The notes under the pieces were generated by a model. The model ran no database searches, was not told the DNA's origin, and was given only the letters and a program-made list of their open reading frames with translations. This document shows, piece by piece, positions 315-54,394 of a stretch of DNA of 64,000 nt. This stretch comes from Trichoplax sp. H2. Lineage: Eukaryota. Made by a program: the position numbers and the translations under genes. The stretch is taken from NCBI GenBank assembly GCA_003344405.1, contig NOWV01000017.1, forward strand, positions 620,001 to 684,000, written 5' to 3'. Position 1 is the first letter of the stretch; each line of letters starts with the position of its first letter.

Positions 315-1877
315 ATGACGGAAAGTAAAGAAGATAACACTAGTACCATATACGATATTTTTAATCGATCAACTAGTGTTTGGAAACAAATATCGGAAAT
401 AGCAAGCAATAGCCGTAATGAATTACCTATACAACCAAGCGTGGCTATGGATTTATTAGAAAAATGCGCGAGAGAACTTGCGCGGATTGAACCAACCCCT
501 TCATCCGATACCGACGACGATGAAGCTGAAAATCAAAAACAACAAGAATTCTCAACGACAGAGATATTATCCAATGTATCATTTTGGTCATCGCAAATGC
601 TAAAAGTTATTTATAACAAGCAACTTTTACCTACTAATTTGTTGTCGCAACTAACCACCATACTATTTGGATGTATTCTGCATTCATTACGATTACTGAA
701 AGGTGATTCGTCTACACACAATCTATTGCGGCAAATTCTTACGACGATGGCACCGTCGGATACATCTAACGATAGTATTGACGAAGACGAAGATATTGAA
801 TCCAACGACGATTTTGTAAAAAATGAAACATTTCCTACCGATTCATCATCCGTTGATGACAGTGATAGCCATAGCCAATCAAGCTTAATTGCTCCAACTG
901 ATAGCACTATTTCAAATCCAACACAATCTAACGGAAACAGTGTAAGCCATTCTAACGTCACTAATTTTAGTGTCAATTGTATCCTAAGCAATAACAGAAA
1001 CACTGATGTCAAGAACCACGAGGAGTTACCAGTTGAGAAAATGAATGTTGCGGCTTGTTCGATGAATAAAGATCAAGATCATTCAGTTAAGCAAACGTTT
1101 ACCATAAATCGCGGTGTACCACTTCATCCCAATAATGTTTCATGCAATCCTGTTATTTCACCTGTTTTTATTTACGATATTACACCTGCTGGACCTCGTA
1201 TTATTCCAGTACCTCAACAACAAGCTATGCCACCAACTGCTGTAGCATATACCAATTTCGGCAATAATGTCAATGATCGCATTAACACAGTTAAACCGGT
1301 CGTCAATCCTTATCAGGGTGGCTATAATGATAACCCGCCGTTATTTTTCAAGAACAGAAATTTAGCATCACCTAATCGTAATGCATTAAATCACGATGGA
1401 CAATTTAACTATTACGATAATCATGGAGATGGCAGCAATCAAGATGGACCTTATCGATGTGATATCTGCTACAAAGCCTTTGGTCGCTCATATAGTCTAA
1501 CAAGACATAAGAGGATACATACTGGCGAGAAACCCTATCGATGCGACGTTTGCCATAAATCATTCACTCAGTCCTTTCATTTAAAAATGCATAAACGTAC
1601 GCATTCGCGCGATGTTTTATATTCGTGCGATATCTGTGGAAAAAGTTTTATCCAAGCAAATGATTTAAAGAAACATCGAAGAGTTCATACCGGCGAAAAA
1701 CCATACGTATGTATGATATGCCTAAAGCCTTTTACCGATTCCAGCCAGTTAAAACGTCATATTCGAGTTCATACTGGAGAAAAGCCATACACATGCGACA
1801 TTTGCAATAAATCGTTTTCGCAATCTGGTACGTTGGCAAAACATAAAAAAATCCATCTTAGAAACGCGGAGCAGTAA
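315..1877 (+). CDS. C2H2 zinc-finger transcription factor, 5 fingers, eh1 motif, N-terminal helical domain (cluster gene 1)
   Basis: 520-aa ATG ORF. Five CxxC-x12-HxxxH fingers from 1452, with three TGEKP linkers and one SRDVL linker. FSVNCIL at 966-986. Confidence 0.93.
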   Translation: MTESKEDNTSTIYDIFNRSTSVWKQISEIASNSRNELPIQPSVAMDLLEKCARELARIEPTPSSDTDDDEAENQKQQEFSTTEILSNVSFWSSQMLKVIYNKQLLPTNLLSQLTTILFGCILHSLRLLKGDSSTHNLLRQILTTMAPSDTSNDSIDEDEDIESNDDFVKNETFPTDSSSVDDSDSHSQSSLIAPTDSTISNPTQSNGNSVSHSNVTNFSVNCILSNNRNTDVKNHEELPVEKMNVAACSMNKDQDHSVKQTFTINRGVPLHPNNVSCNPVISPVFIYDITPAGPRIIPVPQQQAMPPTAVAYTNFGNNVNDRINTVKPVVNPYQGGYNDNPPLFFKNRNLASPNRNALNHDGQFNYYDNHGDGSNQDGPYRCDICYKAFGRSYSLTRHKRIHTGEKPYRCDVCHKSFTQSFHLKMHKRTHSRDVLYSCDICGKSFIQANDLKKHRRVHTGEKPYVCMICLKPFTDSSQLKRHIRVHTGEKPYTCDICNKSFSQSGTLAKHKKIHLRNAEQ

Positions 1878-8662: not shown

Positions 8663-8749
8663 GTTTATAGACGCAGCAAACTTATATCTACGCTCAGTAA
8701 TTTGATACGTTTATAGACGCAGTAGACTTATCTACGCTCAGTAATTTGA
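8663..8749. repeat. Two-copy tandem duplication, period 46 bp
   Basis: GTTTATAGACGCAG...TATCTACGCTCAGTAATTTGA starts at 8663 and at 8709. Confidence 0.85.
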
Positions 8750-12059: not shown

Positions 12060-13200
12060 AAGGTATTACTGTACTGTACAGTGTAGAGTGTAGAGTACAA
12101 GCACCAACCGTACGCAATGTACTGTACTCACTTGTACAATTGCGTACTGTATTCTAGAATCGCTTATCACAACTGTTTGACTGCTTTTTTTTGTTTTCAG
12201 CCATCGTAAAAAGTTAAAGTACACTGCTGCAATATACAGTACAGTACTCCACAGTGGCCATTCCTCTCTCCTTTTGATATTTGATGTAAAGTACAGTAGA
12301 AGAAAACCGAGAGAAGGTTCGGTCTTATTCTAATATACAGTACTGTACAAGTCCAGTAGTCGTAGACCTGAGAAACAGTGGTCCATGACTGTCTGTGCAG
12401 TAGAGTTCAGTACTGTAGTGTAATCCCCCCCCAAAAAGGAAACCTACAGTACAGTACTGTACAGTAGGTACTGTAGGCTAGTAAGCGACCGATGATCCTC
12501 TTTTCGCGTCCAGTACTGGAACTGGTTCTTTGTTTCAATATTGATTTATCTGCAATATACTGGTACTGTACAGTGTACAGTGTGTACAGTATTACGTATT
12601 GTTATCATTGCTGTTATTGTTATTTATTGTTTAGAGTACAACATTGCAGCGCAATTTTATATATTTTTAACCTTATCTTTTACTGTATCGGTGTGGAAAC
12701 CTTGGACAGATGTATTTACCGTGTACAGGGGCTTGGGATTGCCGATTTATTGTATACTGAGTCATGGAAACCCCGGGGTTTATGGAGTAGTCCATGACTG
12801 AGTAACAGCACGATGACTAGATTGTACTCGTGTTACTGTACACTGTTACGGAGTGCAGAGTACCAATCAATTGTATGTACTGTACTGTAGACTCTAATCT
12901 AATCGACTGTCTTGTACTCCAGCACTCGTACTTGTCGTCAACGATGATTTACGACTTGAAATACAATATGTTAACAGCACATACCAAGTTCCTTATGATA
13001 ATTAATAACAGAGCGCAATTGCTGTAAACAAATAAGAGAAAAAAAAATACGGTATGGTACGATACGGTACAGTACGGTATAGTGGCATTAGATTACAGTA
13101 TAGTACTGTACTGAACAACAAAATAAATAGATGTTGTATTGAGAACAACAAAAGCGATGTTGGAAATTGTATTACAGTACTGTGTTGTACTGGATATTGA
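12060..13200. repeat. TACAG/CTGTA-rich simple-sequence region upstream of gene 2
   Basis: Many interleaved TACAG, CTGTA and GTAC units, e.g. 12445-12475 and 12563-12590. Confidence 0.8.
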
Positions 13201-13631: not shown

Positions 13632-15305
13632 ATGGCAGGAGGTATGGAGGAAGCTGTTGACATGATCCAGGCGATTAAGTCAAGCAGTACGCCATCAGAA
13701 TCCTATCAACGTTTTCATCAATTTGTTCAATGGTTGATTAAGACTATAGAAGATCACAGATTGGCCAATTCCAATATTGAAAAACTAGTCTTGATGCTAC
13801 ATGAACTGGCTCGAGAGTTAACCAATTATCGCTTAACGTTACCGCATGCAGTCGCTGAAGGCCAACGCGGCGGCATACACGTAATTTTATATAATATGAC
13901 ATGCTGGTGTATTCAATTAATTAACGCTCTAAAAGAGAATTGTTCTACAGACAAGTTAAATTTCATATTAGAAGCCACTACCCAAGCAGCGTTGGTTTAT
14001 GCTGGACTAATTACTATTGCAGCATCGGGTAGTAATAGCAGCAATATCATCGGGCCTAGCCTTGATAACACTTCTGACGTTGACAAAGATATCAACATAG
14101 ACAATTGTCAGAGTGCTTCACGGCCTGCCGTTTCGGCACAAGGTATCGACGATAGCAACATCGCTAGCAAAAGTGGAAATTCTAGTCCAAGTCAATACGA
14201 ACCTCATCAAAGCCGCACCATCGCCAATAAATATTCTAACCTTGGCCAAAAAGAGCTTACTAGCAAAACCCTTGAATCGACGACGTTAAAAGAGAACGAG
14301 GTCAATGTCACACAACCATCATGCGAGAAAGAGAAGAAGTCTCGAAAATCTGTTGAGGAAGACACCACCACCATAGTCAGTAATACGCGATCTGATGATG
14401 ACAACAGCCAACGATCCAAACGTGCATTAAAATCAAGTAAACGTGGTAATGATCGATTTGAAGTCCGAGAACCAACGAGCATCAAAACTTCCAGTAAGAA
14501 AAGCAATTTTTCTGTTAGTTACTTATTAAGCACTGCTTCTAATAAACAACGAAGTAATGTCAGTACAGGTAGCAAAAACAATTCTCCTTCAGATGAAGAT
14601 AGAGTTACAAGATCGGATACTCTACTCCGCACTACAAACGTCATGAGATTAAACACTCCTCGTGCAGTTCTACCCGGCAATAGCAACACTACACAACCAT
14701 CCACCTTTATTAATCGGCCCTTACTAACTTATCATCCATCACAACATCCGATGATAGTAAATGCGTCTAATAACAACGGACATCAAGCGCCAGTCTATTT
14801 GGCCGGCCCAAAAGTTGAAGGATTATATTACTACATGCAAACGCCAGTGGTGACATCAATTACCGGTCATACCAACATAAATACTCCAATTACCCCAAGC
14901 AGGGGTGAAATTCGTCCAGACCAAGCGAGCACAAGCAGCCAACATCATACTCCACGTGAGGAAGAGTTACGTGGAAATTTCTTTACTAGTAACAAAGTAT
15001 CGACGTTCGACGACAAGGACTATCTTCGTAAAGAAATTTCCAGTCCAGAATCGAGCTCCGCAATAACTGGACTTCGTGCTGGCGATCCACAGTCTAATGA
15101 AAGTAGAACTGGCAAATTATACCAGTGTGAAGTTTGTACAAAAACCTTTGGCCGCGCTTATTCACTAACTCGTCATAGACGTATCCACACTGGCGAGAAA
15201 CCCTACCATTGCGTCGTTTGTGGCAAATCATTCACCCAATCGTATCATTTAAAGATCCATATGAAAACCCATAGTCGTGATCGACATCGATCAAGGGAGG
15301 TTTAA
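13632..15305 (+). CDS. C2H2 zinc-finger transcription factor, 2 fingers, eh1 motif, N-terminal helical domain (cluster gene 2)
   Basis: Long ORF with first ATG at 13632 (the track starts at TTG 13629). Two fingers at 15120-15272 match fingers 1-2 of gene 1. FSVSYLL at 14508-14528. Confidence 0.9.
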
Positions 15306-19104: not shown

Positions 19105-19121
19105 CTAACCCTAACCCTAAC
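19105..19121 (-). repeat. Short interstitial telomere-like (TTAGGG)n tract
   Basis: CTAACCCTAACCCTAAC on the plus strand. Confidence 0.6.
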
Positions 19122-29304: not shown

Positions 29305-30900
29305 TTATGGATTTTCGGCATCTCTTGAATGAATTCTGAAGTGGATTTTAAGATGATAACTCTGAGAAAAGGATTTTCCACACGTTGAACACTTGTAGGG
29401 CCTTTCACGAGTATGGATTCTTTTATGACGCGTTAAACTGTAGGAGCGTGTGAAAACCTTAAGACATATATTACAGCGGTACGTTTTATTGCTTGTGCTA
29501 CTTGCCAATTGAAAATATGGGAAACTTTCTTGAGTATGACGAACTTGTACGGGTGCGTATACCGGAGCAGGAAAAATATTTGGCAATTGATAGCAGTATG
29601 TGACAGGTAGCATATTTACTGCAAACTGCTGCGTGGCAATGGTATCAGAGGGAGCTGATGATGCTATTTGAGATGGGACAGATGATGCAAGGTTACCTTC
29701 AGCACTAACCTGTGTGTAATTCACATTATGCGCAACATTCCTGGCTAATGGATTTGACCCTCCTACATTTGATGACAAGACTGTTTTATAATTACTTAAA
29801 TTGGTATCATTTGAAATTTTAATTGTTGTTCCTTGTGACGAATCTCGTGCACTTTCAACATCACTACCAATGGATGTGGTTGAACTTTCGAGTAATTCAT
29901 TACTAGCATTTAATAATGTTGCTTCAGTTTCATCTGTAGGCGAGCTTAAGATACGTTTTACAGAAAAGCTGATCTTAGTGTTAGTCTTAGTAGTATTCAT
30001 AGTTAATGTAGTATCCTTGTCTAAGTTCAAGCATAAAGTGTTACGATTGTTGATTCTGGATGATCGTTTCTGCTTTTCAAATGTACCTTCTGCTACCAAT
30101 TGATTACTCCCAGATCGAGACGTGGTTAAAATTGCTATAGAGTCAATGTCGCTGCTATCGCTAGAAGATTCTCTAAATGATCCTTGGCGATGTTGTCTCT
30201 TATCGAGTCCTGAAGTAGGTAGTGAAGAAGTAATAGCTGCATTTTTTGCAGTTGGCAGCTCCATGTCGTCTCTGCTACAGCCTGCTACTGGACTATCACC
30301 TCTTAACAACGCAGACACGTTGCGGCTGGTTGTAATCTCACTATCATTGCTATCTTGCTTGATAATATTGCTTACGCATTTGTCACGGTTATTGCGTATG
30401 AAAGATGGAGTTAGGTTATCGTCTGATTGTGGAGTTCCAGATTGATTTCCGTCCCTTTCCAAAGGTTTATCGTTATAATAGATGTATTCCTTATTAGTCG
30501 ACGATATACTGGTATGGCTTCGGAATTGGTGCAATTCTAATATAATTGCAGCATAAACAGCGATCATATTGGTACAATAAGAGGGCAATGATAAATCTTC
30601 GTCGGCGGAGTTGAAAATTTTGTGTAGAAATTCCGTCAACCAAAATGTCATCTGGGATATAATTTCATCTATAGCAAAATTAGTTTTGCCAGTATCAAAT
30701 ACTGTTGACTTTTTTGATGCCGGATGAACAGGCAAATCTCCAAGCATTTCCCAAATAATTTTAAGATGAGACTTAGATAATTGCCCATAGCTAGCTGTAT
30801 TATCTCTGATAACTTGAAGCAATTTGCAAAATAATTTACTGATTGTGTATTGATCTCCACCTATTTTAATCTGTCGCAGTATATTGACTATATTTTCCAT
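29305..30900 (-). CDS. C2H2 zinc-finger transcription factor, 2 fingers, eh1 motif, N-terminal helical domain (cluster gene 3)
   Basis: 531-aa ATG ORF. Two fingers at 29329-29481 (RSYSLTR, QSYHLKI). FSVKRIL at 29947-29967. Confidence 0.9.
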   Translation of the reverse strand: MENIVNILRQIKIGGDQYTISKLFCKLLQVIRDNTASYGQLSKSHLKIIWEMLGDLPVHPASKKSTVFDTGKTNFAIDEIISQMTFWLTEFLHKIFNSADEDLSLPSYCTNMIAVYAAIILELHQFRSHTSISSTNKEYIYYNDKPLERDGNQSGTPQSDDNLTPSFIRNNRDKCVSNIIKQDSNDSEITTSRNVSALLRGDSPVAGCSRDDMELPTAKNAAITSSLPTSGLDKRQHRQGSFRESSSDSSDIDSIAILTTSRSGSNQLVAEGTFEKQKRSSRINNRNTLCLNLDKDTTLTMNTTKTNTKISFSVKRILSSPTDETEATLLNASNELLESSTTSIGSDVESARDSSQGTTIKISNDTNLSNYKTVLSSNVGGSNPLARNVAHNVNYTQVSAEGNLASSVPSQIASSAPSDTIATQQFAVNMLPVTYCYQLPNIFPAPVYAPVQVRHTQESFPYFQLASSTSNKTYRCNICLKVFTRSYSLTRHKRIHTRERPYKCSTCGKSFSQSYHLKIHFRIHSRDAENP

Positions 30901-31138: not shown

Positions 31139-31157
31139 TTAGGGGTTAGGGTTAGGG
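31139..31157 (+). repeat. Interstitial telomere-like TTAGGG tract
   Basis: TTAGGGGTTAGGGTTAGGG directly abutting a TACAG array. Confidence 0.65.
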
Positions 31158-34800: not shown

Positions 34801-35318
34801 TAAAAACATAATTATATGGTGCATGCCATTATTATTAATTTCTTCGATTACTTCAGCACTTTATTTTCGTTATATACCAGAATGAATCTATAGTAATCTG
34901 AATAGAGTCTTAGGTAAAGGGACTCAGTTAATACAGTATATTACTCATGTTGTTGAGTTGTCGAATAATGAAAAGAATATGTTGTTGTAGTCAAATAAAC
35001 AACAATATTATATTTACCAAGTACAATGTCATTACTGACGTTGTATTTCTGTAATTATTGTATTCCGGAAAAAAGATCAAAGTAAAAAGATAATACGGTC
35101 GGCGCTATGCATGCATCATATATGTTCTTTAAAAAATTCTAGGAACCGTGAGCTGGTTTATTACTGTAATATCTAAGTTAAATAGAAACATAAGGAAAAT
35201 ATTTAAATGTTTACAGTTGGTAGGTTGAACAAAAATGCCTCGATAATTAATTAATGAATTTCATAGACTTAGAGTAATTGACCTTATAATCATCTCATCA
35301 TAATGATATTAGTTAAAT

Positions 35319-35611
35319 ATTGTTCAGAACATCCAATCCTCGCTTACAGTCTTTATAGCTAAATATTATGAAGAATTTTGTATGGGGTCCCATTTCCTTT
35401 AATAATCTAAAGTAATCACTATTTTCTGAACATCTAATTCTTATCAATAGACTTTGTAGCTAAATGATATAAAAAAAACTCCGTATACGATTCCACGTTT
35501 TGCAATAATCTAAAGTAAGCACTATTTTCAGAACATCAAATGCTTACCAATAGTCTTTGCAACTAAGTATTATGTAAAATTTCGTATATAGTTCTATTTC
35601 CTGCAATAATT
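35319..35611. repeat. Diverged tandem triplication, unit about 102-103 bp
   Basis: Units start at 35319, 35421 and 35524 with ATT[GT]TC[AT]GAACATC. AATAATCTAAAGTAA recurs at matching spacing. Confidence 0.8.
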
Positions 35612-37270
35612 TAGCAAACGGCGGGTAGTTTGTAATCGTATACCTATGATATTTTATACGAGCATTTACTTTTGGGCTTCACGTACTACGACTAGGCTTT
35701 GAATTGTCAAATTTTGAGTTTAACCTTATTTTAATGAAATCCTTCAAATGAAGCATGAAGATCGTTGCTAAATTTAACAGTAAGATAAGCCTTAAATCTT
35801 AGAAGTTTCTGTCATCAAATTTTTTACGGCCAAAAAATTAACGTAAGGCTTTTTCGAGGCTAAACATTATTTGAAAATCTTTTAGCATCGATTACAGCAC
35901 CACCATTTCGCTTCTAGACCATCGCATCGATAAATATAGATAAGTGGTTTACGGGTGAAAAATTGAAGATTTAAAAATATCGGGAGCTACACATTGTCAT
36001 CCAATTACTATCTGCATCGTTTATATAGTTTGATTCTGCCACGTAAATTTGAATACTGTACTATTAAAACAATTTAAGCATAATATATATATATGAGTAC
36101 AAATATGCAATAAAGTGTTTCCCTTACGAAACTATGTTACAAACTCGTTAAGCCTATGCATTCCATTGATACAATATCATCTATAATATATCATGAGCGT
36201 AAAATATAGGGAGATAATATATTCGTATGCTATTTCGAATTTGATGTAGTTAAAAACTATTGCTTAAGGATCTATTCTCCTATCTTGCGGTGTTAAAGAT
36301 TTATCGAAGATCAGTAGCAGGTCATAGTTTACCCGTATTACCGTAAATAACTATCAAGCCGTCGCACTTTTAAGCCTCAAACATCTATACTTGTAAAGGA
36401 ATACTATATGAATGGGTCTTTGTTACAGGCACAATAACAATTTTTATTGTTGATTGATAAATTATATGCTTGTTCACAAATACGTTGCGAACTCACTGTA
36501 CATATTAAATTTCAGTATTCAAGACTGAATTTAGATTGGTACACGTTTTATTTTCAGCAAAATTTAACATGTTCTCAATATGTCATACTCCGCTATCTAA
36601 GTTAAAAATTTAAAGAAAGTTATACTACCTCGAACGAGTGATATCATTTATCAATTACTTAATCAGATTTAAACAAAGCCTTATTGAAATATATTTATGC
36701 CGCCATTGATGTTACATAAAAGTCCATTTTGAATAAATAATAGCATCATTCATCTAAATATTATAAAACTTATAAAGGATTATGTGGTAATACTGTATAC
36801 CATTGCGTATCAGACATCATTATATTACAACTAAAATTAATGTAATCGCCAAAGAATTATATAATTTGATACAATCCTTTACTCTCCCTTAGACGATTTT
36901 GTATTAAGCGCTGTACTGATTAAACTGTTCATGAAAGTCTATCTAAGGCTCAATATTTCCTGCATTGGATGCGTTAATGAGTGTTTTTATCGTAAATGAT
37001 TTCTGTAAATCGGGAATCTTGTAAGTATCCTACAATCGTAAAACAAATATATTATCAAGCGTCCTATGAATAATTTTAACTTGATGACCTTACTCATTAA
37101 TACATCATCAGCCCAGAAATTAATATCATTATAATTATTAATATATCTAGAATTTACGGTGTATATCGTTATACTGTTTTCTTAGCTGTGTTACAGGATA
37201 GAAGTCGAACATTTTTACTGCATCATTAGCTAAGTAATTAGTGTTAGTATAGTAGGGATCTATATCGTAA

Positions 37271-37730
37271 TGTCACCATCCAACTACGAAATCCAGTGAA
37301 TTCGCGAAATGCCTAGTCAGTTTGCAAAATGCTATGCATCTTGTATTATTAACCGATACAAATGCTTTAAGGCTAACGTTAAGTCAAAAACTAAATGTTA
37401 TAATCAGAGAACTTGTAAAAATGAATAATAATTTTCATAATCAGAACATTATCAATTCATTAATAACTATATAATTGATAATAGTATCTCTAAATATTTG
37501 GCAATTACTTCAGTAATTGCAAGTTACATACTTGTATGTATTGATTATCTAAATCAGTTTATTATTATTATAATCATCAAAAAAATATAGATTCTCTGTT
37601 TTTTTAGTAATATTACGCATGAATAAAGATAGTTTCTCTGATTCATGTGTTTTGATATTTTTACAATTTGCGAACTGACTGGGCATTTTGCAAATATACT
37701 GAACTTCGTACTTAAACGGGTACAGTGACA
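37271..37730. mobile_element. Decayed MITE-like element with diverged terminal inverted repeats
   Basis: 37271-37331 (TGTCAC...GCCTAGTCAGTTTGCAAAATG) matches the reverse complement of about 37664-37730; 40 of 50 nt identical in the core by manual count. No TSD seen. Confidence 0.5.
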
Positions 37731-40700
37731 CTATTATCTGTTGAATATCGGCAAAATTTTATCCACTTATTAATATTAGTATCTTTAAAATTTTGTAATT
37801 ATTCGGTAATGTTATACCATATAGCGAAAATCTTTGTTGAAAAACACTATATCTTACATGGACCATGCTTTCACTTCAGATTCTATTTAAGCCTGAATAT
37901 ATGCTATAGCCCAAAATTTCATCTACTAGATATTTATTTTCTGATTGGCACTTGGGTTTTATCCGTATCTTTAAAGCATTTTAAACATTTAATATTTTCA
38001 GATGTACGCATATATAATTGAGTGTTGTTACTGATCTTATATTCTCTGCAATAACAAAGATCATTATAACTACTATCATATTTCGGTACATGTTTACGTA
38101 TCTATTTCTGTCAGGCGAAATTAATTGATAAGTTCTATTATCAATATCAGGGTGGATTTATACAGTGATATAAAAGTACATATTCTGTCACTAACATCAT
38201 AAGATACCATTATTACATATATATTATCAATATTAATGATATATAACTGTACATATACTTATTTATTTCTAGTTGATACTGAAATGTGGTTGCGATGCTT
38301 CTTGCCTTCTCTAACGTTGCGTTATGGCTATTTAAAATATCTTCATAAATCTATAGTAATACAAGCAATATTCAACTGATATTCCTTATCTCGTAAATAG
38401 CAAGATAGTAATTGATTCTAGGATTGGAACGTACGTAACAATAAGTAGTACTATTTTAACTGGCTTTGTAATACCCCATATAAAACTCTTGATAATAGCA
38501 ATACTCATATATATCTTTTAGCAGATATTTTCATTTTGGTTATATTACTAGAAATATGTACGATACGTTGTATTTCCATAATTTACTATTCTATTAAAGC
38601 TTGGCATTAGCCAATTCAAGCTAGAGATATTGACAGTTCCGTCATCTTGTACATAATGCGATATATTTCTAAACAGCAGTAACGAAAGTTTGTAGCATTG
38701 TATTATTTCTTCAATTACAATAAGTTATGGTGATAAAAGCGTTTAAAAATATTTTAACAAGAATTGTACTTACAGTACTTGTAAACTTACGTTATTACAT
38801 ACTAGTAAATTGATTCGTCTATTAGAGTATCAATTATTATCTACTTTTAATCTAAAATTGTCTAACTACTTATTGCATCAGAATTTGCGATTTACATGCA
38901 GTGCTTACAGATCTATTTTTAGCAATATCATCACATTTTAACAATTAAGCCACAATATCAGAACTAAATTTTACTATTGTACGATCTATAAATAACTAGT
39001 GCTTTCAATTAAAGTATCATAGTAAATTTAGAATCTAATCCGTAATTTTATCACAATACTAAATTACTTAGGTGTCTATTAATGTTTCAAAGCCTAGTTT
39101 ATGTATCGTTGTGAGGGGGCTACTATTATAAGTATTATGGTTATCATTTACAAATGTAAACTTGCGTAATTTTAGAATCTGACGTACAATTTGAAGTCCT
39201 ATATTATCGCACAACCTCATAACGTTAGTCTTAAGCTAATTTTGAAGACTACACTACAGTTATTCATTACCTAATTTAGTATATCATTCTTTATAATAAA
39301 TACATTATAAATCAAATTTCTTTGTAATAGCTAATAACTCGTCACAATCCTTGCGCTATATCTTTTACACTATCTTCTTCTACAGCAGATGTATTCTAGA
39401 TATCTTTTGCCATAGGAATGTGTGCATACGCATATTTCAAATGTAATTTAACATTTTACGGTAAGTGAACGTGGTAGGGGTGGGGTGTCTTATAAAAATC
39501 TTAGTTCTTATCTGTTTTATATACTGTAATACTCGTATAAGAATTTAAATTAGAATCCTTGATTCGATTTTACTGTATTTGTTTGAGCTGAAAACTATTA
39601 ATAGTAATTCAGATTTGAGAACATGTTGAAAATGACAACAAATAATATATAGAATTAGTAACATCAGAGAATTCAGTGTAATAGTTCAATACAAGTATCT
39701 ATTTTGGAAATCTTAGGGTGAATTATTTAAAACTGTGATCATATGGTATTCGCTATTTATGTAGTTGTAATAGTAACATGATCACAATACTAGTCATTCC
39801 ACTTGTAAGCCATGTAAGAGGTAAGAGAAACCACTCTTCACGTTTACTCGTATGCGAACATCTTAACTTGTTTCTACGATTATAGGTAAGGTTAAATCGA
39901 TTAAATAAATGATGGTGTTAAAACCTATTTCATTAAAGTATTCAATTTTCAAAGGGTTAAGGGGAATAATTAAGGGCACAAAGATGAGTAAGGTACAATT
40001 TGATAAGCTATTTGATCTCGACGCCGGAATACCATTTGATATCTACTTTTAAGGATGATTTCCTCGTTTTCTGATAACTTATGAAATAAAGATGACAATT
40101 TTGTATACAAAGTACACAAGTTTTTTTATAATACGATACTGTAGTGAAATAAGCTTTGAGTTATCAACTCTTATCCCTAGCCATTTCAAGCCCTTGTTAT
40201 TACTAGAAGCTGTTATGAAAGTTAAGGCAGTACTAAATTTTTTATGGTAGTAACAAACTGTCTGCTTCTGAACTTGTAAATCTATAGTAGTTACATCCAG
40301 ATAGAGAATTATATTGTGAGACTGTGGTGCCATGGATTATCCATAGGTTTCGTAATCTATAATAATGCACCACATCAGTTATACAAGCTTATATTCTACG
40401 GTACTTGAATGGCATTATATTATCAAATTATAAGAACCATATGTTCTAGATGCTTCTATAAATTCCAGCTATAGCATAAAAGCTACAACAATAAATATTA
40501 GAGAACGCTCTTTGTAAATCTATTATAAACCACATTCAATACTAAGAATCTATTATTTTCAACTTTTAATGTAGCTAATAGTAATTCAAGTGCAGTACTA
40601 TCGATACTCATTTCGTGTTTAATATTTATTACATTCGATAAAACTAAAATTTTGTATTGATTACGTTGAAAATTTATGGCCATAAATACCTTGAAACTTA

Positions 40701-41365
40701 GTTATTGATCATACGTACATGCGTATTTAATTGAATCACCTGCCAGGTAATTTTAGTATCGCTTATCACGAATTAGAGCTACTTTATTAATGCTTTAAGA
40801 AAGATAGTTTAAAAATTTAGGTAACCCTAACTACAACATCTACAGTATATCAAATATTTAGATATACGCGTATAAGAAACAAGTCACAAAGTAACATTTA
40901 CCGCATGGTAGTAAGTGTAGAAACACTCTTTAGCAGTAATACTTTAATCAAGTTGTTACTACTTGAGATGAAGTCTGCAATACCATTGCTTCATAACTTG
41001 AAGCACTAGCTACAATATCTAGAAAACTTCAAGACAATATTATTAAAGCGAGAGTATCACCATAATTTATCACCGGACGCCCGATAAACTTATTACTCAC
41101 TCGAAATTTACTCCCTGTATTACATAGCCTTGGCTATTAGGTAATACTTTATGGGAAACATAACTCACGCAGAGCGCGATGACTTTAAAATCTAAAATTC
41201 GTAAATAAACGTTACGTAATAGTCAACAAGTACTATAGTTGCAGTTAACTACTGCAAGGAAATACCCAGAATTTGTCTCATTGAAATATTGCAATCCCTA
41301 TGATTACATAAGAATCCGTCAGAGATTATCAAATTTCAGTAAAATATTAGACTGGCAATGTAGTA

Positions 41366-42367
41366 CTAATTCGTGGCATTTCTATGTATTATTTTATGCT
41401 TAGTTAAAGCTCCCGACTGAGTAAATGATTTACCGCACACTAAACACTTATACGGCTTCTCTCCGGAATGAATTCGTTCATGTTTTCTTAGTTGACTAGA
41501 GTCTGTAAATCGTTTACCGCAATCAGAACATGAATACGGCTTTTCACCTGAGTGTATCCTATAATGCTTTTTCAGGTCATTGGCTTGCACGAATCTTTTG
41601 TTGCAAACATCACATTTATGTCTCAGATCTCCAGTATGAATTCTTCTATGGATAGTCAAATGATAAGGTTGGGTGAAAGCTTTCGTGCAAATATCACACT
41701 TGTAAGGTCTTTCACCAGTATGAATCCTCATATGACGAGTTAGGCAGTGATAACGATCAAAAGCTTTATTGCAGATTTTACAATAATGGGTTCCAGTAAT
41801 ATTAGTACCAGAACTACGGGTACCAAGGCGTTTGGTAATACTATCGTCTGACCATGTTTTGTCGTTTACAGGCTTGTCATTGTCAGAAATTTTTGTAGCA
41901 GTCACCGGTTGGATAACTGGCGAAGCAGTTTCTTTATGATGTTCAACAGGGTTCACGGGATTGGCAATAATGGCACCTGGTGACGCAGGCATGTACATTC
42001 GATTGCAAAAGAGGTAGTCAAACGGTAAACAACCAAAATATCCTGACATACCTAACTTGAAATTAACACCAAAGGTATTCATTAACGGCTGGATGGCAAA
42101 ATTCTTTTGAGGATATTGGTGGCAAAGATTACCACCTCCTTGATATTTTATCAGTGTTTTATCGTGAACACTACCCAAATTATGAAGGATTCGATCGACA
42201 GAAAATGGCAATGGACTAACTGCTTTACTAGCATCTGATTTAACCGCTACGTGATTGGGTTTACCGGTGCTTTCCAAGCCATCTCGATAGTGAGAGTTCT
42301 CATGAAGAGCTCCGATTGACGCATTATAATTGCTGAGAAAAGTGGGTCCCATGTAACTTCCTGCCAT
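41366..42367 (-). CDS. C2H2 zinc-finger transcription factor, 5 fingers, eh1 motif, N-terminal domain missing from the ORF (cluster gene 4)
   Basis: 333-aa ORF with five fingers paralogous to genes 1 and 5. FSVDRIL at 42185-42205. In-frame TAA at 42392-42394 upstream; true 5' structure uncertain. Confidence 0.87.
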   Translation of the reverse strand: MAGSYMGPTFLSNYNASIGALHENSHYRDGLESTGKPNHVAVKSDASKAVSPLPFSVDRILHNLGSVHDKTLIKYQGGGNLCHQYPQKNFAIQPLMNTFGVNFKLGMSGYFGCLPFDYLFCNRMYMPASPGAIIANPVNPVEHHKETASPVIQPVTATKISDNDKPVNDKTWSDDSITKRLGTRSSGTNITGTHYCKICNKAFDRYHCLTRHMRIHTGERPYKCDICTKAFTQPYHLTIHRRIHTGDLRHKCDVCNKRFVQANDLKKHYRIHSGEKPYSCSDCGKRFTDSSQLRKHERIHSGEKPYKCLVCGKSFTQSGALTKHKIIHRNATN

Positions 42368-42387
42368 TTCATAAAGTGCCCATACAG

Positions 42388-42780
42388 TTACTTACAATGA
42401 AAATGATTTGATATATGCGTCGGCTCTTTTACCTTTGAAAGATCTACCAGTAGCTGCAAGTAATAATAAATGATTGTCACTTTGACGTTCGTTTTAGCTT
42501 TTTGAACTGATCTTGAACCAACGGTAATACTTTTAAAAAGGTCAAGCTTCACGATGGGCGATGTAGTAAAGAGAAGGATAGATTCTATTACCAACTTGGA
42601 TTCGTTTATTAGCTAATTACATAAAATTACGCAAGATATATGTTCCAGTGGACGGAAGGCAAAGTCGTGAGTCAGACGATTTGTAATCCGTTACGATTGT
42701 ATCGTTTCGTTTCTTACGAATCGCTGATGTTCAGAGGCGTACTTATTTTGTTTTTACGTGTCGAGTATCGAATCTACAGC
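42388..42780 (-). pseudogene. Putative decayed N-terminal-domain coding relic (or partly a cryptic exon) of gene 4
   Basis: One minus frame reads AVDSILDT*KQNKYASEHQRF...RITNRLTHDFA...VILCN*LINESK, matching gene 2 motifs in order. Internal stops at 42754-56, 42691-93 and 42613-15. Confidence 0.5.
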
Positions 42781-43384
42781 AAGTACAAACAAAATATGTT
42801 TTAAAATATACATCTTTCATATTTGAAATAGTGAAATCAAGAAACAATGTGATAAAAAATACGCCTATGGTACATACAGTATAAACAAAGTGGGATCATC
42901 AAGATGTTAATTGAATGGTATACCGTATGTACTGTACATACACGTATATTACAGATTAAACTGCAAAGACATTGAAGTTCACTATGTTCTTGGTACAGTA
43001 TAGAGTACACAGATTCAATTCCTCGGTATACAGTAGTAGTATTATTTGAGTAATTTAGCGCTCTATTTGACAGTCAAATGTAAAAAGTTTGCTTCCTTCA
43101 AGCTACTTTACTAACTGTAAATTTATTTCAAATCATAGTTTATAAAAGCGCAAAATTTGATTTGAATATTCAAGTTCCATCGATAGCATGGTACGGTACT
43201 GTACGCTATACAGTAATACTTTATGTTGTATCTACTCAGTACAGTAAAATGTATCAAAGTGATCTGTGGGTGATGCCTACGGGTGTTCTCACGAGTAGTC
43301 AGTCATGTGTCCATCTACCCATTATATTGTATTGTGTATAATAATGTAGTGAGGTCGTAGGTCGCACACGTTGATCTCCAGATT

Positions 43385-46300
43385 GAATACGTACTGTACC
43401 GTGGAGTCAGGGCTGTTACGGGCTTGCTTGTACAGTATGAGAAATCTTTGCCACTACAGTGTACAGTATGAAAATTACGAAATGTACAGTAGACCTCTAT
43501 ATTCAGTATGTACTATACTGTACTGTACCCACAGTACCGTACGCAACGCTAAGGCATTGCACTAGTTTTTTTACTGTACTGTACTACAGTGCGTTTTTGG
43601 TCGAAGTTTGTTTCTATTTTTTTTTCAGTTTTTTTTTTTTATACTGTTTAGAAGTCAGTTTTTAATTTTTGTCAAAATACCGTACACTGCATAATGGTAT
43701 TTTTGGTAAGAAATACATCTAAAGTACGATATATAATGGATGAATATTAGTTGTGTATCACTACGTCAAAGTATATATTTTTACACTACTAAGTACTCAA
43801 CTACTCGTAAGTTGAAAGTTATCGTGAGGATTTCATCAAGAGAAGCTTTGGTGCTTACTTTTCTGAGTTAAGGCCAGTTATAATATTTATTTTTTTTAAT
43901 CAAGTTAGCTAGCTAGTTTAACTTTAATCTATGTTGAAATACCTGTAAAAATATCGGCACCGTTGTCAATCGTCGATTACCGGCTGGATATTCCAAGAAG
44001 TATTGAAAGTATCGAAAGGATACGTATTTTATCAAATACAAGAAAAAAAATAACTGAATGTATACTATAATTTCGCGCAACTCGCACGACTGGATTTGTC
44101 AGGACACCTTTTACAGGGTGGTGTAGTTATCCCAAAATTTACTTCTAGTGCCACAACGCCTGTCAAGGAAGGGAATTGGTTAATTTTGGACAAAATATAG
44201 CAGATGAAAAATGATTTTCATCGGCTCTAAGAATGCGAAAACACCTTACCTCCGAGAGAAAAAGGGAAAATGATCCCTGCGTACGAATGTCTAGAGGAAC
44301 GGAGAAAAACTAAGTAACCTAGAATAGTAACGCCTGCTATAAGAATGCCAATAACTCAGGAAAACTGTACAGTACTGTACTGTACTGTACAGTACAATAC
44401 ACTCTGTACACTGTACTGTACGCCCAAGAAGTGTCACGGGATGGTAAAAAGGTATACGCCCTCGAGACACTGCGTAACGATGCGCGTATTGTACAATACT
44501 GTAGTCAAACAAAAGGAAAAAGAAAAATGTGTACAGTACAGTAGTAGTCGAGTCGACTGGTGATGGCCTCCTACCGTACCTGGCTCGTACCACGTACTGT
44601 GCAGACAGTGCAGTATGACATTATACTGCACTATAAGAAAAAGCTGTACCGACCTTACAGTACAGTATGTGGTCTTCTACTGTACAGTGTACAGTACTAG
44701 TCCATAACTCTTTACAGTATAATGTTGAGTCCCTGTTGACCCAAACATTTCCCTAGGGTAATGACTGCCGTACAGTACCAGAAGAACGTCTTCTTCGAGT
44801 CCATGTAGTTTGTACTGTACGTACACCGTACAGTACAAACTAACTGGATGTTATTACAGTACTGTAATGCTATTCTTCTATCAAGGACTCTTGCAGAGAC
44901 ATACTGTATTCTCTCTAGCTCAGAATCGCTGCGGAAAATGTGGGAGATTTTTTCGTAAATAATTAGAATAAGCAGTAGGAGGGAACTGGCTGGGCTGGGC
45001 TTGAAACCCGTCCAATCTTGGGATTGATTGATTTAATAAGAGATTACAGTAGTCAAAGAAAAAGAGGAGGATTTCTTTTTTAGCTGCAGTCCTTGAGTTA
45101 AAAAAACTACGTATGAAGAGGACTGTCATATGTGTGAAAGTTAAGTAACCAATCATGGCGGTGTTCAGTGTTTACCGTCTCGCGCTCGGTAAAGTACTAG
45201 GTCAACGGGAGCTCTTAGCGCTAGGAGGGCCAAGCAGGTCTGCAGCAATGTTAAGCGCTTGATGGATATTTTTTGTTAGCCTGATTTCTTTGAAATGTAG
45301 AAAGTAAAAATGCGTTACGGATATTGGATAACCACTGTTTAAAAATGAAATACTCCATTCTTTTGTTCGACCGATCGATTACTTTCTTACCAAGTAAAGT
45401 ACTCTTGTCGTGAAGAGAGCGAGATGAAACCGTAAAGGTAAAATAAAAGATTAAAGATCCTCACCACAACTGTACTTCTATTTATTATACAGTACTGTAT
45501 TTTGCTTCGCAAATGCAGCAGTGCGGTGCAGTAGTTTACGTAGCATAGATTACTGTACTCAGTGTACTATACAGTACAGTACACTGGACACTGAGTGGAC
45601 CGTAGTCACTGACCAACTGTACGGTACGCTGTAATACTGTAATCATGTAATAAGTAGACTGACTGTTCTTTTCCAAAATGTCACCGCTCACTTTGCCAGT
45701 GATGAATTAATAAACTTAATTAAGCTCTATACGGTATCTAGGACTCTGTAGACTGCAGTTGCTAGAACGTATACATATATACATTAATCATTAATTAGTG
45801 TATGATTGGAAGTTCGCAATCTCCATTTGTAATTTTATGTACTTGTTTATTTACCTCCATGAATGTGGCATGAAATTTAGTAGTCCATGGATGGTACTAG
45901 TGTACAGCACTCTACAAATTTAGTAGTCCATGATACTACACATACCGGTGACATACGTAGTACGGTAAAAAGATAAAATTAAAGGGTTAACTAGCCTAAA
46001 AGAATAGTGTTGAGTTACCGATATTTCTGAATAAAAAAGTCCGCTTATATTATTAATTATCATTGTTGTTTGTTTGATTATTTATCTTGATTTTAAAGAA
46101 AAAATTACACAATGCTGTCCAAGAGACTGCATGCCGTTGGACCAGACTCTATTACAGTGTTATACAGTATAGTACAGTACTTTTTCCCAAAAATTTATTC
46201 CATTTCTACGACACAGTCGAAAGTTTGATGGGCGTCTGAAAGCAACAATTTTGCTGATCAAATGGGTACTTGATTAGAATCGCGTTGGAAGTTAACTTCA

Positions 46301-47020
46301 ATGAATTGTTAGCCCAAGGATCAACTTGATCCCAATTTAGGCCTTGGTGATTGAATGTAGCTAACTTCATTGCTAGACAAACTACAGTCATTGGTACAGT
46401 TATAGAGGTTTCTTAGTACAGTAAATAAGAGAAAAATTCGGGACATGGACTTGTTCAAGTAGTCCTTTCTAGCTGTCCATGGTACAGTCATAGAGGTTTC
46501 TTAGTACAGTAAATAAGAGAAAAATTCGGGACTGAAAGTCGCTGTTCAGTGGAACAAATGTGCAGGCCGTTGCTGTAAATCAGTACATAACAACAATTCG
46601 ATCAATTACACATAGTAAAACCTTCACCAGCACGTACATTTGTTTAGCAGTAGCAAATCAAGTGCCGAGTTGGCCAATGCAGCTGGGAAATTTGATTTTG
46701 AAAATTATTCTTGATGGACTCCTAATACTGTACATTACAGCAGGCAGCCATGCTTTCGATTGCTCAAATTACTCTTGAGTGAAGTGTCGTAGAGAGTGTA
46801 ATACGTACACTCACTCACTGGCCTATTACAGTAGTAAACTGTTACTCTACTCTACTGGTACTGTACCGGTATCGTATAATGCTTGAAGATATCCCTATAC
46901 TGTACAGTACTTGACACGTGTACACTGTACTGTACAGTACAGTACCAGATATCGTAGTAATAAACGTCAGTGTTCCACAGTATACTGTATTATAGTCTGT
47001 ACTGTAGATATCTACTGTAA
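43385..47020. repeat. Scattered TACAG/CTGTA arrays upstream of gene 4
   Basis: Blocks at about 43390-43590, 44363-44425, 44655-44870, 45470-45640 and 46855-47020. Confidence 0.75.
46392..46532. repeat. 53-bp direct repeat (1 mismatch) with 35-bp spacer
   Basis: TGGTACAGT[T/C]ATAGAGGTTTCTTAGTACAGTAAATAAGAGAAAAATTCGGGAC at 46392-46444 and 46480-46532. Confidence 0.9.
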
Positions 47021-51000: not shown

Positions 51001-52780
51001 CGAAAACCGTCAATGAAGTATATTTTATTTCATGAACTAATTTATCATATTACATTATTCATATACATTATGAATATAGTATTTTTAATATTTCAAATTT
51101 CCTTTATATCAGCGTCATGACGATTAGACATCAAATCTAAAAATTTGATATACGAATAATCTTAAATAATAATTTTTATTAGCATAATTACTCACAGTTT
51201 GACCGAGAGGCCAAATTTCTATATAGTGTTACACTACTAAACTACATACCCTCGATAATTTATAACGATCTCAACGCGATTTTAAGATTCATTGCAAATA
51301 AATATTTATACGTTATTGAAAAAACTATGTATCCACTCCATTTGTGACCACATAGATACTGGCGTGTAGCAGTGGAAGTAACCCATTTATAGATTAGTAA
51401 CTATAACATTCAAGCGATATTCCGTTTCAGTATCTATAAAGCCACAATGTATGTACTGTACAGTACATATACTATAGTCTAGACAGCTCTCCTTTAGTGT
51501 ACTGTATAGTACAATAAGTATATGGACAGATTTAAGATTTAAACAATAAAGAGACCGGTAGGTATAGATTTTAATAAACTGAAAGTGATATATATATATA
51601 CTTAGTTTTCATCGAAGTTAGGTATTATTAGAAAAGCATAGAATCTTTTCAATGATAATTGTTGAACTTTCAATTTATTCTCTTATATAGAGTTTAAAGA
51701 GTACTCAACCTACGGCTTTCTTAGATTAAATTTGTTCTTTATGAAGAAGCATACTTAATAATTCTATCATATCAAATTAGTTATTGTATATCGGTTTATA
51801 TATATATATATAGCGGTTTACAGTTATATCATTCCTAGACCTTGCAATATTAGGACAGTATTGAGTAAGAAAACTGTGCAAATTTTTTTGATTCAGATAG
51901 TATTGCTTCTACAAATACGAATGTCAAAATTTATTTTATGCGGTAATATGGGCGTTAAGGTTACCATCTCGTCAGTAGTAAAGCCCAAGGCTTTAGAGAT
52001 TAACTACTATAGTAATTAAAACCTCATTTTTAACTTTCCTTCAATATAGCACGAAAAAAACCGAAGTAGTGCAAATGGCCATAAAATAAAAGTGCGTTAC
52101 GACGTGCATCGATAGGCAATTGTTATTACTACGTAGCAATAGAAGGAAAGGGCTAGGGAAAAAGTTTACTTTTGGGACCGTTACTTCTATCGACATATAT
52201 CTGTTAAGATACGCTTAGATGTCACTTATTAACAGTATTATAACTATAGAATTTTAATATGCGCGTTTTGTTTATTAGTCTTCATATTTAAACTGTTAAA
52301 GGTATCAGATACGAAGAAATATTTACGCGGTTACGCATTTCTTATAACAATCGCCAAAAAATTAACTATGCCTATTCAATTTAGACATATTTCAGAAAGG
52401 GTTATTGGAATAACTTATTTAGTATTAAATATTGTTTAAATAAAAGATGAAAATTGTCTGCAGCGGTGAACAAGAATCATTTAGTACGCGTATATTGATT
52501 ATGAAATAAATATAGCAAGCAGATATAAGTACATTTAGCCTTGGCTGTTAAGGCTTTTAATGGTATGGTACAGAATTAATGTCATTAATGCAGGTTAGAT
52601 ATGCAGATTTATGTATATATATACTTTATCTTCACACTAAAGGCCTTACTAGACATTTATAAGGGTTACAAGTCAAGCGCTAGAGTGGTAGAATTTCGCA
52701 CATTTTTAGTTAAATTTTCAAGTATAATGATAAAAGTAGTGTCTAACTGGTTGCGACTATTCACTTTTTTTGTAATGCAG

Positions 52781-54394
52781 TTAATGATTACAAGTTTTTT
52801 TATGAATATTCTTATGTTTCATTAGGGTGCCTGATTGCGAAAATGACTTACCGCAAAGATCGCAAGAATACGGTTTATGTCCGGAATGGACACGTTCATG
52901 TTTCCTAAGCTGACTTGAATCCGTAAAACATTTTGAGCAAGTTTTACAACGATAAGGTTTTTCTCCTGTATGAGTTCTTCGATGTTTCTTAAGATCATTG
53001 TTTTGAATAAATTTTTTCCCGCATATATCACAAGTATATCGTAAATCGCCATTGTGAATACGCTTATGGATTTTCAAATGGAAAGATTGCGTAAATGACT
53101 TTTGACAGATATTACACGTGTACGGTTTCTCTCCTGTATGAATTCTTTGATGTCTTTTGAGACTGTACGCTCGCTGGAAGGTTTTATCGCAGCGTTGACA
53201 CCGATAATGCAATAAATTAGCTTCATCTTCTTGAGGTATATTTATAGTTTTCGTATTTATGCGATAGTTATCTTCAATATTGACATCGATTTTCTGTACA
53301 TTATTTTTATTTTCTTCGACGTTCGAAGAATTAACATTTTGTGGTAAATGTGAAATAGGTTGATCATTTTGAAGATTTTCCTCTTGCCTTTTAAAATTAT
53401 GCAATAAATCATTTTCTAAACATTTCCTTTGACAAATATTAGATCTTTCCTGAACTGCACTATCGATAACAGTCGAAGCTACATTGTCATTATTTATGTT
53501 AGTTGAGCAGGCATTATAATCACCTTCGTCAATAAAATGTAATTGTAGGCAATTCTTGGATCCTTGTAGTATGGTATCGATACTAAAATTCGTGAGTTGC
53601 TTTATCTTTGATAAATTTCTCTTCTTGTTTGGATGTCCATTTAGCTTTCTTCGAGAATATGATGATGACGCTTTATTACTTTCATTATCAGCATTAGATG
53701 GAATAGCAAGTAGGCTATCAGAAAGTGTAGGTATCATTACAATTTCGTTTGCTTTAATAGAATCAGTAGAATTAATCGACGTGGAGATAGAACTACTTGA
53801 GGTTTGTACATTATTTGAAACTGAATAATTTGGAGTAGCCGGATCATGTTCCGATAATTGACCGCTAAATTTCCAGTTATTTTCATTATTGATATGTAAT
53901 AAAGCTGAAGTAGACGCTATATTGTTATATTCACGAAAAATAGATGGTGGAAGTGAAGATGAATTCTTGTACAAGTGTATAGTAGGTATTTCGCTAATAT
54001 AAGAATAAAGCTTTATAGCCTCTTCAGCAGATATCTTACTAACGACAGTAGCAGCTATTGAGAAGGAAATTTTCAAAATTTTATCAACTATCTCTGTAAC
54101 CTTTTGGTTGTACGGATAAAAGCATTGATACAAAAATCGGCAATGGTCTGCCATATTACGGAGCAAACTCTTCAAGTTATTAGCTAATCTACCATCCTCT
54201 ATGTTATCAAGTAATAGTTGCTGTAGTTTAATCGAATCTTGTAATAATCGTCTAGCTATTAAATTAGTTCCCATCGGTGATACATGGTGCTTAAAATATT
54301 CCTGAAATAACTCTAATAAGATATAACAAGTCGCTACTAATTCGCAAGCTTGGAATCCCTCGATGGTAGTTGTAATGCTATGAGAGTTCTCCAT
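52781..54394 (-). CDS. C2H2 zinc-finger transcription factor, 5 fingers, eh1 motif, N-terminal helical domain (cluster gene 5)
   Basis: ORF with first ATG at 54394 (MENS...; the track starts at TTG 54406). Five fingers. FSIDTIL at 53567-53587. Confidence 0.92.
   Translation of the reverse strand: MENSHSITTTIEGFQACELVATCYILLELFQEYFKHHVSPMGTNLIARRLLQDSIKLQQLLLDNIEDGRLANNLKSLLRNMADHCRFLYQCFYPYNQKVTEIVDKILKISFSIAATVVSKISAEEAIKLYSYISEIPTIHLYKNSSSLPPSIFREYNNIASTSALLHINNENNWKFSGQLSEHDPATPNYSVSNNVQTSSSSISTSINSTDSIKANEIVMIPTLSDSLLAIPSNADNESNKASSSYSRRKLNGHPNKKRNLSKIKQLTNFSIDTILQGSKNCLQLHFIDEGDYNACSTNINNDNVASTVIDSAVQERSNICQRKCLENDLLHNFKRQEENLQNDQPISHLPQNVNSSNVEENKNNVQKIDVNIEDNYRINTKTINIPQEDEANLLHYRCQRCDKTFQRAYSLKRHQRIHTGEKPYTCNICQKSFTQSFHLKIHKRIHNGDLRYTCDICGKKFIQNNDLKKHRRTHTGEKPYRCKTCSKCFTDSSQLRKHERVHSGHKPYSCDLCGKSFSQSGTLMKHKNIHKKTCNH

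Follow-up and report, generated by a model that had tools for sequence, protein, structure and literature searches.

A 64,000-nucleotide stretch of the Trichoplax sp. H2 genome (contig NOWV01000017.1 of assembly GCA_003344405.1, positions 620,001 to 684,000 of the forward strand; hereafter the window) contains a cluster of five zinc-finger genes, named here Z1 to Z5. The cluster is real, old, constrained and at least partly expressed. Our preferred explanation, to which we assign a probability of roughly 0.6 from sequence comparisons, is that the five genes form a placozoan-restricted family of sequence-specific C2H2 factors that would share a DNA motif and most likely act as Groucho/TLE-dependent repressors. 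All five proteins carry an eh1-like motif in a linker that cannot be aligned between paralogs, followed by fingers whose base-contact residues are nearly constant.

Five Intact Zinc-Finger Genes in One Cluster

Exactly five open reading frames (ORFs) of at least 150 amino acids (aa) were found in the window, using ATG starts and the standard code, and all five are intact. The longest ATG ORF in the shuffled window was 125 aa (20 mononucleotide shuffles), so the frames of Z1 to Z5 are far beyond chance. The window is AT-rich, with a GC content of 0.27–0.39 in steps of 2 kilobases (kb). The ORFs lie exactly where a preliminary description of this DNA, made from its letters alone, had placed them:

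315..1877, + strand: Z1 gene, 520 aa, one uninterrupted ORF; zf-C2H2 in 5 stretches, E 1.9e-30 (Pfam)
about 315-755, + strand: N-terminal helical region of Z1, preceding the Ser/Asn-rich linker, the eh1-like motif and the five fingers
13632..15305, + strand: Z2 gene, 557 aa; five-helix domain at aa 1-135, motif linker, two fingers and a conserved tail
29305..30900, − strand: Z3 gene, 531 aa; N-terminal helical region, motif and two fingers, with the stop after HSRDAENP
41366..42367, − strand: Z4 coding exon, 333 aa; without the N-terminal helical domain, motif near the N-terminus, five fingers
52781..54394, − strand: Z5 gene, 537 aa; longest N-terminal helical region, motif and five fingers

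The finger counts of Z1 to Z5 are 5, 2, 2, 5 and 5. Matches to zf-C2H2 (PF00096 and its clan) covered 5, 2, 2, 5 and 5 stretches and scored 104, 47.1, 45.6, 105.1 and 102.7 bits, against a Pfam gathering cut-off of 25.2 bits. Zinc-finger-type families alone passed the curated Pfam cut-offs in all five proteins (E up to 0.1), and Pfam found no KRAB, SCAN, BTB or ZAD domain in any of them. Only 4–10 residues follow the last finger, and Z2 and Z3 end a few residues past finger 2. A tblastn search with all five proteins confined the finger-coding DNA of the window to the five Z loci, so the window hides no further finger exons downstream of Z2 or Z3. Rfam gave 0 matches within the window.

What the preliminary description observed is largely right but idealised. 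Its local expansion stands, since the window's finger-coding DNA is all in the five Z loci. Its tandem cluster is a cluster, yet with two genes on the + strand and three on the − strand there is no head-to-tail tandem array. The "same layout" it saw is overstated: a motif-bearing linker followed by C-terminal fingers is common to all five proteins, but there are either five fingers or two, and Z4 lacks the N-terminal helical region. That these were the only solid genes is true of long ORFs but not of transcripts, as at least one extra spliced, apparently non-coding transcript lies at 25000-26950.

The five proteins are all present in NCBI nr and in EukProt; the genes are already in public annotation, under an automatic name. 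In clusters formed at 90% identity each of the five is the sole member. According to PMC6057997 the two Trichoplax genomes are 99.1% identical, and these single-member clusters indicate that, despite this identity, the collection contains no near-identical gene model from the sister genome.

Finger Arrays and Selection

The finger arrays, with their recognition helices in order, are as follows:

1452..1856, + strand: Z1 finger array, RSYSLTR, QSFHLKM, QANDLKK, DSSQLKR, QSGTLAK
15120..15272, + strand: Z2 fingers 1-2, RAYSLTR, QSYHLKI
29329..29481, − strand: Z3 fingers 1-2, RSYSLTR, QSYHLKI
41384..41788, − strand: Z4 finger array, RYHCLTR, QPYHLTI, QANDLKK, DSSQLRK, QSGALTK
52802..53206, − strand: Z5 finger array, RAYSLKR, QSFHLKI, QNNDLKK, DSSQLRK, QSGTLMK

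The five helices quoted when the cluster was first described are all those of Z1. The fingers had then been called near identical, which is not the case. Amino-acid identity is 0.56–0.73 over fingers 1-2 (all 10 pairs) and 0.62–0.73 over fingers 1-5 (all 3 pairs), and the part that is nearly unchanged consists of the base-contact residues at helix positions -1, 2, 3 and 6. The contacts of finger 1 are RYSR in four of the five paralogs and RHCR in Z4, and those of finger 2 are Q[FY]H[MI] in all five. The three five-finger paralogs all have QNDK in finger 3, DSQ[RK] in finger 4 and QG[TA]K in finger 5. Near-constant contact residues are the signature of one conserved DNA target, not of a diversifying poly-zinc-finger expansion.

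A pairwise check of nonsynonymous against synonymous change (dN/dS), which had been suggested for this cluster, was run on the fingers. In all 10 pairs the proportion of synonymous differences (pS) was 0.73–1.07, which is saturated and allowed a distance correction in just 1 of the 10, and the proportion of nonsynonymous differences (pN) was 0.17–0.28. With pN far below saturated pS, the fingers are not near-neutral, and this pattern of substitution indicates that they are under purifying selection. The saturation between paralogs, together with orthologs of Z2 at 65% and 57% identity, also bears out the suggestion that the family is old. A tree of fingers 1-2 (54 columns, 7 rows) had none of its four inner branches at the support mark, and the split of Z4 and Z5 from the rest reached 74/84. 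As this tree has no supported inner branches, we do not claim Z2 and Z3 as sisters.

One Motif Conserved in Otherwise Unalignable Linkers

Each of the five proteins has exactly one match to the pattern FS[VI]xx[IL]L, located 129–206 residues before the first finger:

966..986, + strand: Z1 eh1-like motif FSVNCIL, aa 218-224
14508..14528, + strand: Z2 eh1-like motif FSVSYLL, aa 293-299
29947..29967, − strand: Z3 eh1-like motif FSVKRIL, aa 312-318
42185..42205, − strand: Z4 eh1-like motif FSVDRIL, aa 55-61, in the context LPFSVDRILH
53567..53587, − strand: Z5 eh1-like motif FSIDTIL, aa 270-276

When each protein was shuffled 20,000 times, the motif arose 36, 15, 64, 9 and 62 times for Z1 to Z5. 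All five copies fit the eh1 form F-x-[IV]-x-x-[IL]-[LM] and stand outside the DNA-binding domain. They lie in a Ser-, Asn- and Thr-rich linker of 195–358 residues. As the preliminary description had it, linkers cannot be aligned between paralogs (no linker match by tblastn at E 1e-3), and the motif is their sole conserved island. Outside the fingers, the five-way alignment has only M1, S177, F218, S219 and L224 (Z1 numbering) as invariant columns. A block of 13 residues at the motif is invariant in Z2 and both of its orthologs. No WRPW, PxDLS or SNAG motif was found in Z1 to Z5.

It is established that eh1 motifs bind Groucho and that eh1 repression domains are Groucho-dependent (PMC9890238; PMC1310626). 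In known Groucho-dependent repression domains the motif is reported to lie in a disordered linker, as it does here (PMC9890238), and a Groucho ortholog with a significant TLE_N match has been reported in Trichoplax adhaerens (PMC4943189). Because eh1–Groucho binding is established and Groucho is reported in that species, we read Z1 to Z5 as putative Groucho-tethering repressors. Of the earlier claim of repression through eh1, the motif is present and conserved in all five proteins, and repression itself is what we infer, on good grounds.

A Two-Finger Form Conserved in Orthologs of Z2

A search with the non-finger part of Z2 as query (7999 scored candidates) found two orthologs, P0122 at 65% and P0123 at 57% identity. 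Both share the two-finger end of Z2. Invariant among the three sequences are the N-terminal domain (residues 55-132), the eh1 block, the two fingers, the tail HSRDRHRSR and several short islands in the linker. Since the two-finger end is invariant in both orthologs, the two-finger form is conserved and is not a recent truncation. When metagenomes were scanned with the alignment of Z2 and its orthologs, 3 loci matched, all unrelated zinc-finger genes that aligned through their fingers only; one of them, L001, encodes a protein with many fingers.

Two further linker islands of Z2 are invariant in both orthologs, at residues 355-402 (~14694-14837) and 463-476 (~15018-15059). The five-way alignment did not show them to be conserved in other paralogs, and they may be additional short linear motifs.

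The N-Terminal Helical Domain

Four of the five proteins (Z1, Z2, Z3 and Z5) have an N-terminal helical region. AlphaFold2, run on a six-row alignment, modeled residues 1-135 of Z2 as all-helical with five long helices (mean predicted local distance difference test (pLDDT) 68, predicted template-modeling score (pTM) 0.61). A profile of the four N-terminal regions had 4 matches at E <=0.001 among 1.84 billion representative proteins: Z5, Z1, a Z2 ortholog and P0126, a protein of 2092 aa. Three of the four are thus the family itself. We rejected P0126 as a relative of the domain; it is a repeat artefact, with an hhalign probability of 1% (E 0.055) and summed scores to many unrelated Pfam families in which no single stretch passes. 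For this domain, the earlier proposal that the family is lineage-specific agrees with the search.

The modeled structure was also compared with known folds. In the PDB, Foldseek found nothing at E <=0.001; its best match was to fungal MP1 lipid-binding helical bundles at E 0.018. VIA wide gave a best Z value of 9.7, to generic helical repeats, which is below the ~13 that the tool quotes for helical models. In a language-model atlas the domain had no feature match, and the structure rows were assorted bacterial helical domains with template-modeling (TM) scores of 0.40–0.57. The fold likeness of the modeled domain is generic, and it has no nameable fold family among these sources. A two-copy complex prediction for the Z2 domain returned no answer (score 0.00) and speaks neither for nor against self-association.

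Transcription of the Cluster

Sequencing contigs were matched to the window, and runs X8, X11 and X17 are on record as RNA. The case is most complete for Z4, for which these features were added to the coding exon:

42774..43942, − strand: Z4 5'-leader intron, 1169 nucleotides (nt), GT..AG, from joined contigs of X1 and X3
43943..44158, − strand: Z4 non-coding 5' exon, from contig pieces 43943-44132 and 43958-44158
44159-44248, − strand: intron upstream of the Z4 5' exon, 90 nt, GT..AG, with the joint 44158/44249 in 4 of 4 runs

RNA contigs cover the region 39692-42775. One contig of X1 (2325 nt) and one of X3 (2351 nt) join 42773 to 43943, with 190 nt on the shorter side, and contigs of X8 and X11 stop at 42775 with a 12-letter overhang that is the end of the upstream exon. 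The GT..AG-joined contigs and matching overhangs establish Z4 as a spliced transcript with a non-coding 5' exon. Within the spliced exon, an in-frame stop 27 nt before the ATG closes the Z4 frame.

The Z3 ORF lies whole within single contigs of X8 (27279-31486) and X11 (27396-31479), each 4.0–4.2 kb long, and in pieces in X3, with no splice. For Z5, the fraction of sampled words present was 0.86 in X8, 0.80 in X11 and 0.28 in X17 (query window 52500-54700). Z3 and Z5 are likely transcribed. RNA libraries can contain DNA, so their transcription is likely, short of proven. In X8 and X11, the bins 33463-36717 and 37369-38670 are without cover and the bin between them is at 0.66 in X8; this fits RNA over DNA and proves nothing.

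Downstream of the 3' end of Z3, at 25000-26950 on the − strand, contigs of X8 and X11 have GT..AG introns at 25803-26094 and 26193-26460, at lower depth. No ORF of at least 80 aa occurs there on either strand, and the probable source is a non-coding RNA that is spliced or a 3' region of Z3 that extends this far. Contigs of 1.2–1.4 kb from X8, X11 and X3 cover 31543-32943, immediately upstream of the Z3 contig, and may represent either a 5' leader of Z3 that reaches further or an upstream transcript running divergently. Between the two lies an array of the short repeat GTACAGTAC, where assemblies break.

An existing gene model, P0124 ("Zinc finger protein 233 [Trichoplax sp. H2]"), is identical to Z5 through residue 514 and then has another end. 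It leaves the Z5 ORF at GGTAAGT in finger 5 (donor 52852, − strand) and joins about 51137-51096, 1.7 kb downstream, a splice that swaps finger 5 for 14 other residues. Because finger 5 is kept in Z1 and Z4, this end reflects either faulty annotation or an alternative isoform with four fingers.

Comparison with Known Zinc-Finger Families

A search for homologs of the finger array had been proposed as a means of placing the family. It was run, and 7988 of 8000 scored candidates passed; the best 120 were poly-zinc-finger proteins by summed score, with no Fez name among them. Since many-fingered proteins outrank all others in such a search, it does not help in placing the Z family. Against the PDB, the fingers of Z1 matched ZNF568, Aart, PRDM9, CTCF and the designed consensus 1mey (1.2e-26) best, and matched Gfi-1 (3.3e-20), SNAI1 (7.5e-20) and OSR2 (3.1e-19) more weakly.

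Odd-skipped, Bowl and Osr resemble the Z proteins in being C2H2 repressors with an eh1-like motif. In Drosophila Odd and Bowl, however, that motif is reported to be C-terminal (PMC1310626), whereas in Z1 to Z5 it is N-terminal to the fingers, and OSR2 fingers match Z1 more weakly than the designed 1mey does. Snail/Scratch/Ces-1 and Gfi/Senseless share with the Z proteins a short co-repressor motif and C-terminal C2H2 fingers; Ces-1 is reported to have an N-terminal eh1 motif and to bind the Groucho ortholog (PMC1310626). The SNAG N-terminus that is the hallmark of Snail/Scratch and Gfi is found in none of the five Z proteins, nor is PxDLS, and the Gfi-1 and SNAI1 structures match less well than generic fingers. 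Insect ZAD-ZNF and vertebrate SCAN-, KRAB- and BTB-ZNF proteins are similar in having an N-terminal non-DNA-binding domain before C-terminal fingers and in forming lineage-restricted genomic clusters. Unlike these, the Z proteins have no such Pfam domain, their N-terminal domain is modeled as a five-helix bundle, and their contact residues are conserved rather than diversified.

Proposed Mechanism and Alternative Explanations

In the mechanism that we propose, the C-terminal fingers of Z1 to Z5 would bind DNA. Because the contact residues are nearly the same in all paralogs, a single motif is predicted; the five proteins would recognise it in common, with the two-finger Z2 and Z3 reading just its finger 1-2 sub-site. 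From its place in the disordered, Ser/Asn-rich linker, FS[VI]xx[IL]L would bind the Groucho WD40 domain, and the co-repressor thereby brought to bound sites would cause repression. The five-helix bundle at the N-terminus of four of the proteins may be a protein-interaction module. Paralogs would then differ in their site of expression or in their partner, through the N-terminal and linker parts, and not in the DNA that they read. A more far-reaching version, to which we give less than even odds, is that this would be the first eh1–C2H2 association in a non-bilaterian, independent of Fez, Osr and Ces-1, with one specificity throughout; the two-finger members might be half-site binders or else competitors or partners, and a novel N-terminal domain might supply a paralog-specific partner.

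Several points weigh against this explanation. Eh1 is a short pattern, and convergent origins of eh1-like motifs are known. That the motif is conserved means that it matters and says nothing about its binding partner. Two fingers alone usually confer little specificity, which is relevant to Z2 and Z3. The expression of Z3 and Z5 rests on contigs from RNA libraries, with their possible DNA content. Profile comparisons suggest that N-terminal homology among the paralogs is weak: with hhalign, the Z2-ortholog profile matched Z3 at E 0.0042 over 117 collinear columns with a probability of 8%, and matched Z1 (E 0.03) and Z5 (E 0.011, 17 columns) over short stretches. Between paralogs, tblastn at E 1e-3 found no match in the N-terminal part or the linker. 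A profile of the five non-finger regions recovered Z2 and its two orthologs only, and as it missed the window's own Z1, Z3, Z4 and Z5, it says nothing about the orthologs of those four.

The five genes might instead be divergent members or co-orthologs of Fez and Fez-like, which are eh1 zinc-finger repressors found across Metazoa, and hence an expansion of a described family. We think this unlikely. Among language-model look-alikes of Z4, the top three clusters were Fez family ("fez family zinc finger protein 1", its counterpart "2" and "Fez"; 0.97–0.98, 182 of 256 shared features), with Odd-skipped-related (0.96–0.97) and Gfi1B clusters lower, but the statistics of this search support the shared Pfam family zf-C2H2 only and not the cluster names. 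The Fez link is therefore a lead from a language-model search. In Fez proteins the helix of finger 1 is of the LTRH type and that of the last finger of the DLKKH type, which resemble fingers 1 and 3 here. Fez and Fezf (ZNF312, too few, Drosophila CG31670 and the cnidarian "Fezf-like") are also like Z1 to Z5 in having eh1 N-terminal to a C-terminal C2H2 array (PMC1310626) and a finger domain that is usually without an intron (PMC2942887). Compared by description, Fezf differs in its six fingers, its finger identity of >75% across Metazoa and, in non-bilaterian members, its SNAG domain, all as reported in PMC2942887. The Z proteins have 5, 2, 2, 5 and 5 fingers with no further finger DNA in the window, none of the five N-termini fits a SNAG start, and four of the five have an extra N-terminal helical domain. 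As the paralogs are 56–73% identical to each other, they cannot all be >75% identical to one Fezf. Putative Fezf orthologs are, moreover, reported in all metazoans studied, with Trichoplax adhaerens among the genomes searched (PMC2942887), so that Z1 to Z5 would be extra genes.

Slightly more doubtful still is the possibility that these are lineage-specific DNA-binding factors in which the motif has some other job (another partner, a degron or an export signal), perhaps as architectural or tethering proteins that combine an N-terminal self-association domain with C-terminal fingers, comparable to insect ZAD or vertebrate SCAN zinc-finger proteins. The N-terminal helical domain is confined to the family, as in other lineage-specific architectural zinc-finger proteins, and GTACAGTAC is densely arrayed close to the 5' ends of Z2, Z3 and Z4. 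A promoter-hub motif is described in placozoans in PMC12221973, where the loop factors of non-bilaterians are given as unidentified and possibly lineage-specific zf-C2H2 proteins; the available part of that paper does not name the Z family. Set against this possibility, all five motifs fit the eh1 consensus and lie in a disordered linker as in Groucho-dependent domains, and a simple recognition-code reading of the contact residues gives no GTAC-type site. It would be very surprising if the cluster were a fast-evolving, transposon-aimed expansion of the KRAB-ZNF type, or partly decaying pseudogenes with the two-finger copies as truncation remnants. Genes that are clustered, lineage-specific and intronless in their coding parts, with fingers nearest to generic consensus (ZNF568, Aart, PRDM9) and two shortened copies, would suit such an origin. 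The conserved contact residues, the low pN against saturated pS, the lack of any KRAB, SCAN, BTB or ZAD domain, the intact ORFs, the two-finger end of Z2 that is invariant in orthologs and the lack of finger remnants downstream of Z2 and Z3 argue against this explanation.

Relation to Previous Work

A 2016 survey of eh1 motifs reported eh1–C2H2 associations in bilaterians and none in the non-bilaterians examined, which included the RefSeq models of Trichoplax adhaerens (PMC4943189). Our literature searches found no paper describing the Z family. In the placozoan cell atlas (PMC10580291), zinc finger, C2H2, Fez, Groucho and Gfi have 0 mentions in the main text. What is probably new here, judged on sequence, is a family of eh1 zinc-finger repressors where none had been reported, an N-terminal domain without a match and conserved two-finger members.

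Groucho-mediated repression is older than animals. If the motif is functional in the Z proteins, Groucho is after all combined with zinc-finger DNA-binding domains in placozoans, within a family peculiar to them, and a short motif would once more have captured a co-repressor convergently. The cluster is also a natural experiment: its five paralogs have one predicted DNA specificity but vary in their N-terminal and linker parts, and two of them are natural two-finger forms. Cell types are few in placozoans, and single-cell atlases have been published, which makes a division of labour among the paralogs directly testable. The finding overturns nothing; what it adds is a new lineage for a known kind of regulator.

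Repeats in the Window

The repeat GTACAGTAC occurs 99 times in the window, compared with 0.66 expected from shuffles. Its arrays, at 12071-13111, 20451-21274, 31157-31823, 42929-46945 and 60850-63442, consist of imperfect pentamers in which GTACA and GTACT units are mixed. They lie 0.3–1.5 kb upstream of the start codons of Z2 and Z3 and around the 5' exons of Z4. Many unrelated contigs break or falsely join at 31210-31270 and 44364-44395, so the repeat seems to recur across the genome in many transcripts or promoters. The placozoan promoter-hub/Mutator terminal inverted repeat (Mutator-TIR) motif of PMC12221973, whose letters the text does not give, could be a relative of it. A literature search on Trichoplax promoters found no description of the repeat. 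We considered that the Z proteins might bind GTACAGTAC arrays and dropped the idea, since the recognition-code reading yields no such site.

Two two-copy tandem repeats are intergenic, at 35371-35576 (103 nt, 74% identity) and 8663-8749 (44 nt, 90% matches). An inverted repeat at 60418-60486 and 60517-60585 has arms of 69 nt that are 99% complementary, with 30 nt between them, and has hairpin potential or may be a small foldback element.

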